From Thermodesulfovibrionales bacterium (GTDB lineage: Bacteria; Nitrospirota; Thermodesulfovibrionia; Thermodesulfovibrionales; SM23-35): a DNA stretch of 17,278 nt. Shown here piece after piece: positions 12,001 to 17,278 of the stretch. Made by a program: the position numbers. Location of the stretch: contig CAVQRT010000015.1 of NCBI GenBank assembly GCA_963715195.1, positions 1 to 17,278 of the forward strand, in the 5' to 3' direction. Position 1 is the first letter of the stretch. Every line of letters starts with the position of its first letter.

Positions 12001-15000
12001 GAATAAAAATGACCTTCAATTGGAACTAAAACGTCTGCGAGACTGCCTTGAGGATCTTGAGGAAACAATGCAGTTTAATCTCACCCATACATCTGCCCAT
12101 ATCAGTGGGCAACAAGTAAAAAAAGATGAGGAGAGTCTTGGTATGCTAAAACATGAAATTGCTACTTTAGAGCAGATATTATCTCAGAGATAAGCAGCAT
12201 TTAATATTCCATGAGCCATACTTTGGAAAAATTAAGGAATGCGTTTAATCGCTGTTAACACTTGATAGGAAAATCATGAAGATAAATTCAAAGAGATTTG
12301 CAGAAGAATGGTTTGAATCATGGAACTCACATGATCTGGATAGAATATTATCTCACTATAGTGATAATGTCGAAATCACTACACCAATGATTAAAGTTGC
12401 CACGGGAATAGAAACCGGAACACTAAAAGGAAAAAGAAATATTAGAGAATACTGGGAAACGGCATTGAAGAAAGTGCCAGATTTGCATTTTGAATTGAAA
12501 GAAATAACAGAAGGAGTGGAATCTGTAGCTATTTATTATCAATCGGTTTTTGGAAAAATGGCGATTGAAGTAATGTTTTTTGATGATGCAGGCAAAATAA
12601 ATAAGGTAATAGCGCATTACAGTAGAGTAGAGAACTGGCGTAGTAGCTAAAGGCTCTATCTCCAGTTCCCCCTCATCAGTAGGGTCGAGGACTGGCGCGT
12701 ATCAGAGGAATTCTGCACGTCTCCAGCCCCCGCCTCGTCAAACATAGCATGCAGATTTCCCGCACTATGCTTTCCTTTCGGCTTCACTACAAGGGTTATG
12801 GTGCCTATTTGCCGGCAGTGCTTTTGAGTCCGTAGTACCTCACCTTATAATCAGCATAAAGCCTGAGGTGACAGTAAAACCAGTCTCTACTCCACCTGTC
12901 CCAGCCAAAGCCCTTACGTTTTCGAGATCTCATGAGATGACGTCTTATTTTCTTCTCGACCCAATCCTTTACATAACTAAAACATCGACTGGAATGCCCT
13001 ATCCGAAAGTAATTAACCCAGCCTCGGAGTTTCGGGTTGATCAACTCAATCACGCGTTCAACAGGTTGAGACATGAATCGCTGGAAAATCTCTTTAAGAT
13101 TTCTCAAGAGATTTGTCCGCGCCTTCATCCTCGGGGTGATGCGTAGCCCCCATTTCCCACTGAGTGTTATAATCCTCCGTATGTCGAACCCCACAAAGCT
13201 AAAGCTCTCCCCTTTCGTCAGGTCTACGACTTGGGTCTTTTCTTCGTTAACTTTTACATCCAGTCTCGCCAACTCTTCAAGAAGTCGTCGATATGCCCTC
13301 TGTAGTAACCAGTTCCAACGTCGATACCCGTCTACCAGTATCACAAGGTCATCTGCAAAGCGAGCGTACTCGATATAGGTAAAGCCAGATTTACCCGTCA
13401 CCGCCTTCGCCTTCTCAAGCATCCTATCCACCTCATTTAGGTAGATATTTGACAAGAGGGGTGAGACTACCCCACCCTGTGGAACTCCACGCTTACCGCT
13501 AGCTTTTAGTATGAGTCGCAGCAGCCACATCACTTTGTAATCGTCGACCCTTCTGGCTATCTTTTTCAACAATAGGTCATGACGCACCGTATCAAAATAC
13601 GCCTTGAGGTCAACATCGATGACTTGTGTCTTATTGTGAACGATCGCATCTGCGATTCGGTGCACCGCCTGATGCGCCGTTCGTTTCGGGCGATACCCGT
13701 ATGAACCCTCCTGAAAGTCAGCTTCAAAGATCGGTTCAAGAACAAGTTTAAGCGCTCCCTGCACTATTCGATCACGGATAGTCGGTATCCCAAGAATACG
13801 TAATTTCCCATTTCCTTTGGGTATTTCTTTCCGTCGATTTCGCATAGGCAGGTATCTCCCTGAAAGTAGTTCTCTCTGTATACTCAGAAGAAACTCTTCG
13901 CGACCGCTTCCCTCAATGGCTTCAAAGGTGACACCATCAGTTCCAGGTGCCCCATTATTCTCTTTGGCCATGACGTAGGCAGCTTGGAGCACCTCCATCT
14001 TGCATACATGAACGTACAATCCCCAAAACCGATGCTGCTTGTCGGCTTTCGCCTTGACGTATATTCTCCTCCTCAGGTCCTGCAGACTAACGGATGTCTT
14101 TGTCATCTCATCCCTGCCTTCCATTGTTGTTAGAGAAATGCCAAAAGTAGGGCCTCTTCGCTCCACAAGCATTACCCTGCTTCATCGCTACTACTGGCCC
14201 ATCCGTCACCCTTCCGCCTTCAGTCCACTTCCCAGTGTCTCCGGTTATAGGACTTACCTTGCTCCGGCGATTTCTCGCCGGGGCAGTTAGGGCTTCTCCA
14301 GTTGCTCGGTGTGTCCTTGCTGCCATGCCGCCGTTATCACCCCACTGAAGTGGAATAACCGTTTCAATCAGTTTTCGGTTATCCATGCTGCCTTCGCCCT
14401 ACGGTTGAAAGCTCGGCCTTCAGGGCTCCGTATTTTCGGGGCCACCTCCACGTTCACTTTCGTTGCGGCCTGGCAACTCGTTATCATCCTTCAGATGACA
14501 GTGTCGATGGGCTTCAGGATATCGGTTTCCCTTTACCCTGCCATCCTAACTACATGGCTTCTGACTGTTGCCATGGCAGGACTGTCTCCTGCTGAACACA
14601 CCAGCCTTTGCTGGACACACAACCGTACGTTCGGTTTTCCCGAATACGGCTTTCCAATCATCTTCTTCCAGAGGCGTTCACAGTTTCCTTCTGCTTGGCA
14701 CTCTGGTATAGCCTTCTCCGAAGATTCCCGATTTAGAGGAGTTAATAGTCTGCCTAAGGCTGACAATCTCCTTTCCTTCTCTCCTTCGGAGACATGATGA
14801 AGGTATTGCCCCTTCCCTCTCCCAAAGTTATGTTGTCTTTGAGATACCAGCGGTAATATGAGCAACTCCGACTCCCTTATAGACCCGGTGAAACTTCGGC
14901 TTTCCTTATATCCACCAGTTGCTCCCGTTATCATCGAGACATCGATAAGGGTCTCCCGCGTTCATTCTCGTATGGCTTCCCCTGCGTGTCGCCCCTGTTA

Positions 15001-17278
15001 CCCCGGAAGTCCATCTATCGGTTACGGTAGTTTTCGTTAGGATAGATGCTTCGGTCTTCCCCAATGTAGGAACAGGGTCGACAACTTCATTCTGTTTTGT
15101 CGAGGCTACATCCAGAGTTCGCTCTCGCTACAACCCGCAGGTTCGCTCAGCTCCCTCTCGGAGCCTTTGTCAAGAAACTCAGTGCTTCAGGTTACCCTTT
15201 ACACCTCCTTCAAGCTACGTGGGTGAACTACCCAATTCCCACGACCGGACTTTAACCGGCAAGTCATACGTTTTACACGGCATGCCCTACGAACAAACAT
15301 CTACGGCATAATATGAGCAGTGAGAATTACTGATTGTAATATGCAAAAGATACTGATATTTTAGTATTTTTTAACAATTTCTTATCTTATTCAAAACTGT
15401 AACCGTGGAGATCAATTTCTATTTGGAATGCTTTTCTAATCATCTCACGATAATATGGAGGTAATACAGTTTGATAAGGTCGTTTATCAGAAGTGGACCC
15501 CATTGGTTGGACAGTTTTGGGGCTGATTTAAGGTGGAAACCACCATCCATCATGCCGCCAGTTTTACCGGATAACCTGCCCTTGGCAGATTCCAGTATGC
15601 CTCATGTGGTGTCCTGTCGTCCAGAGAAGAATGAGGACGCTCCTCATTGTAACGTCTGATCCATTTATCGATACCTTTCCGTGCCTCACTGCCTGTCTCA
15701 AAAGCATGTAAATAAATACACTCATATTTCAGTGACCGCCATAGCCGCTCAATCATAATGTTATCCATCCACCGACCTTTGCTGTCCATAGAAATCTTCA
15801 CCTCGGCGTCCTTGAGCACCTGTGTAAAAGAAAAGCTCGTGAATTGGCTTCCTTGATCCGTGTTGAAGATGACAGGCTTACCGTATTTGGCCAAAGCCTC
15901 CTTGAGGGCTTCGACACAGAAATCAGCATCAAGGGTATTGCTGAGCCTCCAACTGAGAACCTTCCGACTGTGCCAGTCCATGACCGCCACCAGATACAGA
16001 AAGCCCTTTCTCATCGGTATGTACGTCACGTCGGAGCACCAGACCTGGTTGGGCTCCTGTATGTCTATCCCTCTGAAGCAAATAAGGATAGATCTTATGC
16101 TCAGGATGCGGTTTGCTTGTATTGGGTTTCTGATAGATCGCCATGAGTCCCATCTTCTGCATCAGCCGACGCACCCGCTTCCGGTTAACCCAGTACCCCT
16201 GACGCCGCAGATATCGGGCCATCTGTCGGGCTCCGTAATACGGCGCTTCCAGAAACTGCTCGTCTATTAGCCTCATGAGCTTCAGATTCAACTCGCTCTC
16301 CCCGGTCGCCTCGTAATACCACGAGGAGCGGCTAATCTGAAGTAATTCGCACTGCTTTGTAATACTGAGCCCCGGATCCCCCGGTTCCACCAGCTCTTTC
16401 CTCCGCTCGCGGCTCATCGACCGAAGGCTTTCGCTAAAAAATCCCGTTCCACCGTCAATTGCCCGATCTTAGCGTGCAACTCCTTGACCTGTACCTCGTG
16501 AGCTACGTCATCCCGACTTGGCTTCCCTGCAAATACGTCACTAAGCCCTTTCAGTGCCTGTTTCTTCCAGTCGCTTACCTGATTGGGGTGAATATTGAAC
16601 CGCGCTGCGATCTCTGCAATCGTTGATTCTTCCTTCAACGCCTCGCGTGCTACTTTTGCCTTGAATTCCGCCGAATACCTGTTCCTTTTCGTCTTGCTCA
16701 TCCCGGTGTGACCTCCTTACGCTTGTCGTATTTTACACCTTATACGACTGTCCGATTTCAGGGGTCCACCTCTATCTTTGCGATATTGACTTTTTGCATA
16801 AATGTTTAGAGTGCCTGAAAAGGGTATCCCCAGATTGCTAAAAATTATTTTCAATTCCTCAGAAAGATTTTCGTATTTACCGACATAATCAACAATGATA
16901 TGTTTATGATTAAGATTGTCAGTATATAAAGGATAGTTAAAAGGAATTAGATATCCCTTACGTATCCAATCCTCAAAGGTAAGTTTATTTCCAAAAAATA
17001 AATAATTTACAGAGTGATACTGTGATATCATTTTATCCCAGGGATTCCTTTCAAAACAAAACTTGAAATAATCATTCCAAATTTTTTTATTAACCCTATT
17101 TTTTACAATAAAGGCAGGCATATGATTGTAGAATCCTGCATAATTTCTTGGTATATGTCCAACTTCTGCAGGTCCGACTGGCGTAAAAATATCATCCTCA
17201 GCACATAAGTCTGAAAGATACACTTCAATACTTGTACCTGCCGTTTTAAATGTCTTTACGAAAATAAATTTATACTTG

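Follow-up and report, generated by a model that had tools for sequence, protein, structure and literature searches.

An RT-encoding class F group II intron found repeatedly at the end of domain V of other group II introns

How does one group II intron come to lie at the same nucleotide of the catalytic domain V (DV) in two different host introns? The window analyzed here, a 17,278-nt stretch of contig C15 of a Thermodesulfovibrionales genome, contains one such twintron (Table 1), and a second copy of the inner intron is located on contig C25 (59888-61829, plus strand). Both copies are 1942 nt long, begin with GTGTG, end with AC and differ at 1 of 1942 positions (99.95% identity). Since they are a single nucleotide apart, the inner intron has presumably moved recently. 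The initial annotation had placed both copies correctly; the 99.3% identity that it gave is wrong and fits a BLAST HSP taking in host flanks.

The nested introns and their class

The inner intron has the features of a mobile group II intron: GUGYG...AY ends, DI, DV and DVI folds, an RT/maturase ORF and EBS1, EBS2 and EBS3 elements that pair with the flanking exons. A Pfam search of the ORF revealed only the RVT_1 and GIIM domains, i.e., the D/En domain is absent.

Table 1. Features of the twintron in the window
Feature	Position	Strand	Detail
Inner group II intron, class F (probably g2), endonuclease domain absent, 1942 nt	12679-14620	-	Rfam D1D4-4 match 14458-14594
Inner RT/maturase ORF, 455 aa counted from first ATG, YARFADD motif	12805-14172	-	RVT_1 and GIIM only
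EBS1 AACCGUA, intron nt 215-221, pairs with exon -1 to -7	14400-14406	-	Covariation, 49 non-redundant loci
EBS2, intron nt 188-192, pairs with exon -9 to -13	14429-14433	-	3 of 5 pairs at C15 site
EBS3 A, intron nt 284, pairs with last host DV base	14337	-	Delta 14407, delta-prime 14443
Inner intron's own DV, lower stem recoded AGCAUAG/CUAUGUU	12740-12772	-	3 of 7 pairs with own EBS1
Inner DVI and 3' end	12679-12736	-	Fold
ORF-less host, 5' part (DI-DIV and DV nt 1-32)	14621-15285	-	Rfam D1D4-4 match 15123-15262
Host DV nt 1-32	14621-14652	-	IBS1 14621-14627, IBS2 14629-14633
Last host DV base (IBS3, 12678) and host DVI to 3' end	12622-12678	-	
SnoaL-like gene, twintron antisense within last codons	12276-15311 (12276-12621 + 15286-15311)	+	

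Class E, our first guess, was replaced by class F after comparison with the literature. The inner intron belongs to class F and probably to variety g2, with which, according to the available portions of Toro and Martinez-Abarca (2013, PMC3552965) and Miura et al. (2022, PMC8919778), it shares an endonuclease-less RT/maturase, the FADD motif and a size of 1.9-2.0 kb. The RT5 FADD motif, a g2 criterion in PMC3552965, is present as YARFADD. The Miura 2022 table assigns the label F(g2-g5) to locus L081, which lies within the clade of the inner intron, and to L082 of the outgroup; a 64%-identical relative carries that label. The g3 intron Ni.ha.I1, the only named intron of varieties g2-g4 that was compared, shares 37% identity and branches off elsewhere than in the clade. 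In the portions of PMC3552965 and PMC8919778 available to us, we found no mention of insertion in DV or of an altered DV; the host-locus entries in Table S2 of the former read only hypothetical protein, transposase or non-coding sequence. The name B.th.I3 apparently covers two introns: the YADD-homing one of Tourasse differs in strain, host locus and size from the one in Toro's g2 table and therefore gives no evidence on g2.

The host in the window spans 12622-15285 and is ORF-less, while the C25 host, which starts at 58001, has a frameshifted RT, as originally described. One intron is exactly nested within another, the insertion being located between nt 32 and nt 33 of the 33-nt host DV. Thus the earlier placement in DV holds, with the refinement that the site is not inside the catalytic triad and lies at the DV base, at the DV/DVI junction. 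The insertion costs the host DV its closing base pair only and separates DV from DVI, while the AGC-triad helix remains upstream. Because DV and DVI are parted, splicing would be sequential, with the inner intron leaving first. In silico excision of the inner intron again rebuilt the host DV followed by DVI, and the two ORF-less introns with an empty site previously noted on C16 were found at 3803-4524 and 7181-7900. The exact empty joint (12678 to 14621) is present in contigs from two public DNA runs, one of which also yielded contigs spanning both filled junctions. Two RNA runs (X17 and X18) gave thin contigs and small shares only, with no spliced joint among them, and were uninformative.

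Guide pairings and the range of insertion sites

The 3' strand of DV is the one sequence common to nearly all group II introns. Covariation analysis of 49 non-redundant loci recovered EBS1, EBS2, EBS3 and the delta-delta-prime interaction in the expected order, and the alignments demonstrate the predicted pairing of host DV positions -1 to -7, -9 to -13 and +1 with EBS1, EBS2 and EBS3, respectively. At 64 non-redundant metagenome loci, EBS1 changes along with its target at two positions, -2 (p = 1e-5) and -6 (p = 0.002), values uncorrected for kinship. The complementarity and covariation of EBS1 with the DV strand, already proposed in the initial annotation, was reproduced in GTDB genomes, in genome G301 and in metagenomes, and EBS1 could be extended to 7 nt. 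A candidate EBS2 at intron nt 166-172 is complementary to the DV consensus, yet it showed no covariation and was rejected in favor of nt 188-192; for EBS3, nt 233 performed worse than nt 284.

We defined a strict DV rule with a background of 740 hits in 5.63 million genome positions (1.3e-4 per position). It was passed by 36 of 77 insertion sites of relatives, superseding an over-strict first rule (24 of 77) that lost hosts ending in GGAT or GGAA. Counted by clusters, 28 of 51 occupy the strict DV position against that background; the hosts of relatives belong to four Rfam families (D1D4-2, -4, -6 and -7). Scanning of metagenomes gave 119 junctions of DV with GTGYG, of which 110 belong to this one lineage. 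Specialization on DV is therefore supported in three data sets, as had been claimed, and is not absolute: 23 of the 51 clusters lie away from strict DV, 14 of them with other EBS1 sequences. Viral contigs yielded no clade member (one distant match, one Bacillus-type match and no junctions). An array in genome G242 turned out to be three separate host-type introns without an inner intron.

In genome G301, 14 copies are distributed over 12 sites, and 11 of these sites are in DV. All three GACCGUA copies are located at ACGGTT, and six of nine GUCCGUA sites are ACGGAT. EBS2 is mismatched in four of the five empty copies of the host family. The equally matched but empty sites of this genome comprise four outside DV and one in DV. 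Tandem copies in G301 that might have been self-nested in their own DV are instead arranged head-to-tail without a spacer.

We consider it likely, judging from the sequences, that the inner intron is an ordinary En-minus retrohoming intron with guides tuned to the DV 3' strand of other group II introns; the weak EBS2 pairing at the C15 site counts against this explanation. As far as genome comparison can demonstrate it, insertions are precise and recurrent in unrelated hosts of several classes, and inner copies home independently of host copies. By analogy with known En-minus introns, the lariat RNP would act at the replication fork and reverse-splice into resident intron DNA; on expression, the inner intron would splice first, rejoining host DV with DVI. 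A host that afterwards spliced and moved would travel empty and become a fresh target. Host introns would act as safe sites, while selection would purge most look-alike insertions in genes. Because DV is the universally conserved catalytic helix of group II introns, the presence of any other such intron offers a target to one that reads DV, across classes and phyla and in ORF-less elements.

The recoded domain V of the inner intron

The inner intron's own DV is recoded where EBS1 reads, and the same holds for 41 of 42 clusters. Out of seven possible pairs, EBS1 forms on average 3.2 with its own DV vs. 6.4 at the actual site (23 clusters); the corresponding values for 23 metagenome loci are 3.5 and 6.0. 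In the sister clade DV is canonical and the insertions lie at non-DV sites, and the sole canonical DV among the 42 clusters belongs to a retargeted member, L047. Recoding maps to a single branch, and retargeted members retain it. We lean towards the view that the DV was recoded at -4 to -7, with the three triad-pairing bases kept, for avoiding self-insertion. We only infer self-avoidance, because the recoding is one evolutionary event with exceptions: L234's own 7-mer is identical to its target, the DV of L220 is near-canonical and L060 sits in the DV of an intron of the same lineage.

It is also conceivable, though less likely, that the alteration of DV was neutral or structural, predates DV targeting and was merely permissive, without being upheld by self-avoidance. 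Its retention in retargeted subclades would fit, as would the Bacillus-type outgroup, which lacks DV targeting and has a differently altered lower stem of its own DV, with a target resembling a transposase motif; moreover, L220 and L234 are complete introns with a near-canonical DV. However, DV is canonical in the immediate sister clade, and at least 10 distinct recoded stems occur, nearly all of which avoid the target, while ACGG or CCGG is retained in other classes. Among genome loci, the single clear reversion (L047) occurred in a retargeted member.

One may go further and tentatively regard the lineage as a hyperparasite that exploits group II introns across classes and is engaged in an arms race over the ribozyme active-site helix, with its own DV recoded for self-immunity; hosts would escape by DV variants (…GGAT, …GGAA, …CCGGG(A/T)T), and EBS variants would follow, even within one genome. 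Both splicing and mobility of an invaded host would then depend on the parasite, and this dependence may be part of the reason that many such hosts lack an ORF or are broken. Offshoots with a new target still land in DI or DVI of other introns. The recoded DV is in effect an active-site helix mutagenized by nature, and a simple candidate for self/non-self discrimination by a retroelement; it occurs on plasmids of cultured strains.

Other routes to domain V and related systems

EBS pairing alone is insufficient to account for the choice of DV, because the genome under study contains 14 empty sites that equal the occupied ones in match. It follows that selection or a further determinant contributes. 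The latter could be a single-stranded DNA hairpin, upstream protein contacts or reverse splicing into host intron RNA; the 14 empty sites indeed lack a hairpin (0 to -3 vs. -8.9 kcal/mol at the occupied site). We nevertheless think it unlikely that such a determinant directs the intron to DV. Twelve of the 14 sites fall within ORFs of 120 aa or more, which makes selection a sufficient explanation, and ectopic insertions L001, L073, L075 and L139 show near-perfect EBS1 pairing without any DV. At two G301 insertion sites, the preceding sequence is the 3' half of a DV, and its 5' half is 1.9-2.6 kb distant, whether parted before or after the insertion; a hairpin would be expected to sequester IBS1.

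Alternatively, the twintron might move as a unit by composite mobility, duplication or gene conversion, the shared position reflecting a few old insertions. All seven ORF-less hosts in G301 are filled, some host pairs there are identical and one site bears a head-to-tail triple, as such spread would predict. We find this account improbable, given that host introns span different families, that the near-identical inner copies on C15 and C25 reside in hosts with 62 differences over their 5' 470 nt and that, conversely, the inner copies within identical hosts are separated by 15-16 changes. The divergence of hosts shows no correlation with that of inner introns (rho -0.07). Unit spread between host classes is thus largely refuted; within a single genome it is a possible minor route. 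An assembly artefact that joined repeats at DV, a conserved sequence shared by many elements in a metagenome-type assembly, is scarcely credible, as the junctions are exact at both intron ends, are found again in complete plasmids from cultured strains (L081 and L085) and in independent runs, and track EBS changes.

Retrohoming with guides tuned to DV has its closest parallels in M.a.I5, UA.I3, P.l.I2 and B.th.I3 of B. thuringiensis israelensis (Tourasse & Kolsto 2008, PMC2504315), which, in the parts of that work available, are likewise En-minus, EBS/IBS-guided twintron formers specialized on a conserved sequence of other retroelements; Methanosarcina intron nests are summarized in PMC4424553. 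Those introns target the RYADD codons of RT genes, whereas the present lineage targets the ribozyme DV, also in ORF-less introns, in hosts of several classes, and has its own copy of the target recoded. Its sites being in DV rather than at RYADD codons, it follows a similar strategy without being a member of the M.a.I5/UA.I3/P.l.I2 group. In Thermosynechococcus elongatus, near-identical TeI3 copies in diverged TeI4 hosts were also read as independent recent homing; as described in the sections of PMC2882425 at hand, the inner introns are ORF-less, of the same CL family and located at RT start codons in a single genome, while the inner intron studied here bears an RT, is located in DV and ranges over several classes and phyla. 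The Euglena gracilis psbF twintron (Copertino & Hallick 1991, as partly reported in PMC8393795) is likewise located in DV and is a lone fixed chloroplast case, not a mobile lineage. Introns nested in introns are thus already known; no description of a DV-homing bacterial intron lineage, of this target site or of the apparent self-avoidance was found in the literature searched. The recoded own DV, EBS2 and EBS3, the assignment to class F/g2 and the Euglena psbF parallel go beyond the initial annotation.

A search with the RF00029 model left the inner intron's own DV unmatched at E<=0.1 and misread the stretch from the host DV into the inner intron's 5' end as DV-DVI. Since DVs are missed or misread in this way and published survey pipelines set twintrons aside, surveys likely undercount both twintron partners and misplace their boundaries.

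Nested introns of the window genome

The initial annotation held that one intron sits twice in this genome at the same position of domain V (DV) of two host group II introns. This proved correct: the two copies of the inner intron differ by a single base, and both lie after 32 of the 33 bases of the host DV, with the last DV base and domain VI (DVI) downstream. When the flanks were rejoined computationally, the DV hairpin returned, as had been claimed, together with that of DVI. The inner intron encodes a group II RT/maturase (TIGR04416 match), in which the only Pfam domains are RVT_1 and GIIM. 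The hosts on contigs C15 (the window) and C25 show 62 differences in their first 470 nt; the former is antisense to a SnoaL-like gene, within the last codons of that gene, and the RT of the latter is frameshifted. Two ORF-less relatives on contig C16 do carry the reported empty site. The exact empty joint is present in contigs of the public DNA runs X1 and X2, and both filled junctions are also spanned by contigs of X2. The IS3-like transposase region upstream could be a source of twintron transcription. At another locus (L002), the RT shares 92% identity with the window's, and the intron 3′ end abuts the same DVI sequence as in the C16 hosts, an arrangement that suggests a deletion within a twintron.

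Coordinates of the introns and accompanying features (G301, another genome with many inner-intron copies)
Feature	Location	Strand	Remarks
Inner intron, copy 1	C15:12679-14620	-	1942 nt
Inner intron, copy 2	C25:59888-61829	+	1942 nt
C15 host intron	C15:12622-15285		ORF-less
tRNA-Sec gene	C15:7841-7934	+	
IS3-like transposase ORFs	C15:15550-16701	-	apparent frameshift; same strand as twintron, upstream
Three inner-intron copies	G301:C1:2160044-2165998		head-to-tail, no spacer, one DV site
Ectopic inner intron (L139)	G301:C1 about 1560300-1562260		in-frame in protein ORF, perfect IBS1
IS-like element	L137:3328-5938 (G301)		in loop of a host DV
IS-like element	L144:3618-5474 (G301)		in loop of a different host DV

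Guide pairing and range of insertion sites

Guide sequences were mapped on 49 aligned non-redundant 5′ ends, drawn from the best 80 of 539 confirmed genome candidates and from plasmid loci. Covariation places EBS1 at intron nt 215-221 (pairing with exon −1 to −7), EBS2 at nt 188-192 (exon −9 to −13), EBS3 at nt 284 (exon +1) and δ-δ′ at nt 214/178. In the window, EBS1 forms 7/7 pairs, in agreement with its proposed complementarity to the host DV strand, EBS2 forms 3/5 and EBS3 is paired.

Addition of loci from a 401-genome phylum search gave 82 clade loci with a 5′ end, 77 of them with at least 34 nt of exon. A strict rule for DV was passed by 36/77 insertion sites vs 740 of 5.63 million genome positions. 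Since the 77 include some loci fetched in duplicate, clusters made at 95% identity are the safer count, and 28/51 occupy the strict DV position. The proposed specialisation on DV is not absolute: 28/37 clusters with a DV-type EBS1 (L057 assigned by eye) are at a strict DV, and none of the 14 with other EBS1 sequences is inserted in a DV. Five of the remaining nine DV-type clusters have DVI-like sequence downstream, and their sites look like damaged DVs. Retargeted offshoots often still land in group II introns: L011, L013, L016 and L034 lie immediately before a D1D4-6 match, L076 within one and L017 within DVI. Another retargeted subclade (L036-L045) has many copies in one genome, at sites inside an inverted-repeat hairpin.

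Host domains match Rfam D1D4-2, -4, -6 and -7 in 11 of 16 scanned loci; a host D1-D4 match is absent from the other five. Use of the DV site across phyla was also upheld, with named records from Acidobacteriota, Pseudomonadota, Chlamydiota, Nitrospirota, Chloroflexota and Lentisphaerota and one short contig binned as Halobacteriota. Metagenomes were also queried for a canonical DV with GTGYG after it, a pattern that presupposes nothing about the inner lineage; at least 120 loci matched. Among the matches listed, 119 were parsed: 110 begin with the 5′ end of the inner lineage, seven are plain DVI starts, one is cut off and one is a different element. At L256, a different element starting with GTGTGTCCTG lies after a DV, at the same position. 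Across 64 non-redundant metagenome loci, changes in EBS1 follow those in the target at positions −2 (p = 1e-5) and −6 (p = 0.002), p values that ignore kinship.

As judged by sequence comparison, insertion at the base of DV is precise, repeated and EBS-guided in unrelated hosts. DV insertion is real, widespread and mechanistically explicit. In the thinly covered contigs of two RNA runs (X17 and X18), no spliced joint was seen. By analogy with established En-minus introns, the inner intron would reverse-splice into DNA at the replication fork and would splice out first, and host movement would regenerate empty targets.

Site choice and host condition

In the window genome, 14 empty sites match the EBS as well as occupied sites do; 12 fall in ORFs of 120 aa or longer, and a hairpin forms at 0/14. 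Four non-DV sites of equal match are empty in G301. Purifying selection accounts most simply for these empty sites; a structural or protein determinant acting beyond EBS pairing may possibly also steer the choice of DV.

Where 2 kb or more of upstream sequence was available at a strict DV (23 loci), the host RT is missing in 12, broken or partial in seven and intact-looking in four. RT sequence is found upstream in 26/41 metagenome loci with at least 1.5 kb upstream, and ORF-less hosts are also found empty; invasion is therefore not established as the cause of decay.

In G301, 14 matching 5′ ends are spread over 12 sites: nine intact DVs, two DV 3′ halves that an IS-like element separates from the 5′ halves, and one protein ORF with perfect IBS1, whose flanking translation presumably resembles formate-tetrahydrofolate ligase. 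The IS-like element has inverted ends, a ~610-aa ORF stretch and a ~12-bp duplication, and both DV remnants (L137 and L144) also hold the inner intron. All three copies with EBS1 GACCGUA are at ACGGTT; of the nine GUCCGUA sites, six read ACGGAT, one reads ACGGAC and two have a mismatched ACGGTT. The main host family is filled in 10/15 copies (7/7 ORF-less vs 3/8 others); of its five empty copies, four have mismatches to EBS2 and the fifth is a good match. Also empty are the other 15 DVs retrieved (20 in all, from 35 RF00029 matches). Host and inner-intron divergence are uncorrelated, as expected if homing was independent or gene conversion took place.

Known relatives and the recoded domain V

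The inner intron belongs to class F: PMC8919778 gives the label F(g2-g5) to a 64% relative that is carried by a Bradyrhizobium plasmid and likewise sits in a DV. The FADD motif points to variety g2 by the criterion given in the accessible text of PMC3552965, and the g3 intron Ni.ha.I1 falls outside the clade in the RT tree. Known analogues, as far as the portions consulted describe them, are RYADD-homing introns (PMC2504315), Methanosarcina intron nests (PMC4424553), Thermosynechococcus twintrons (PMC2882425) and the Euglena psbF twintron (via PMC8393795), whose inner intron is in DV. A DV-homing lineage was not found in the available portions of the literature searched, which included these six sources, PMC4028801, PMC4649490, PMC5572947, PMC3245105 and PMC12584367. 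We regard the lineage as a variant of the known strategy of homing into introns; its target is notable, and it has a candidate means of avoiding itself. Several specialised intron lineages were reportedly announced in Simon 2008; that this one has already been described seems rather unlikely.

The inner intron's own DV stem reads AGCAUAG/CUAUGUU instead of the usual AGCCGUA/UACGGUU: the three triad-facing bases are retained, and compensated changes affect positions −4 to −7. It is altered in 41/42 clusters with a readable own DV and in 22/24 metagenome introns. In 23 clusters, with wobble pairs given half weight, EBS1 forms 3.2 of seven possible pairs with the own DV vs 6.4 with the actual target; the metagenome set gives 3.5 vs 6.0. 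In a quick IQ-TREE run on RTs (98 rows, 30 near-duplicates removed, midpoint root), every DV-inserted member falls, as does the altered DV, in a 64-row clade (SH-aLRT 98). In the four-row sister group of this clade the DV is canonical, and the insertion sites, where read, lie outside DV. The one canonical-DV member (L047) differs from the lineage in EBS1 and target.

Self-avoidance may be the reason for the recoding, a reading we hold with equal belief and doubt. Its single origin, the altered stem retained by retargeted members and another altered stem without DV targeting in the next outgroup count against an adaptive reading, and L220, L234 and L060 are exceptions. The HRFADD outgroup (L082, L088, L112, L008) has its own altered DV and inserts after a conserved TGGCA(G/A)(A/G)T(C/T)G, which we take to resemble a transposase R-W-x-I/V-E motif.
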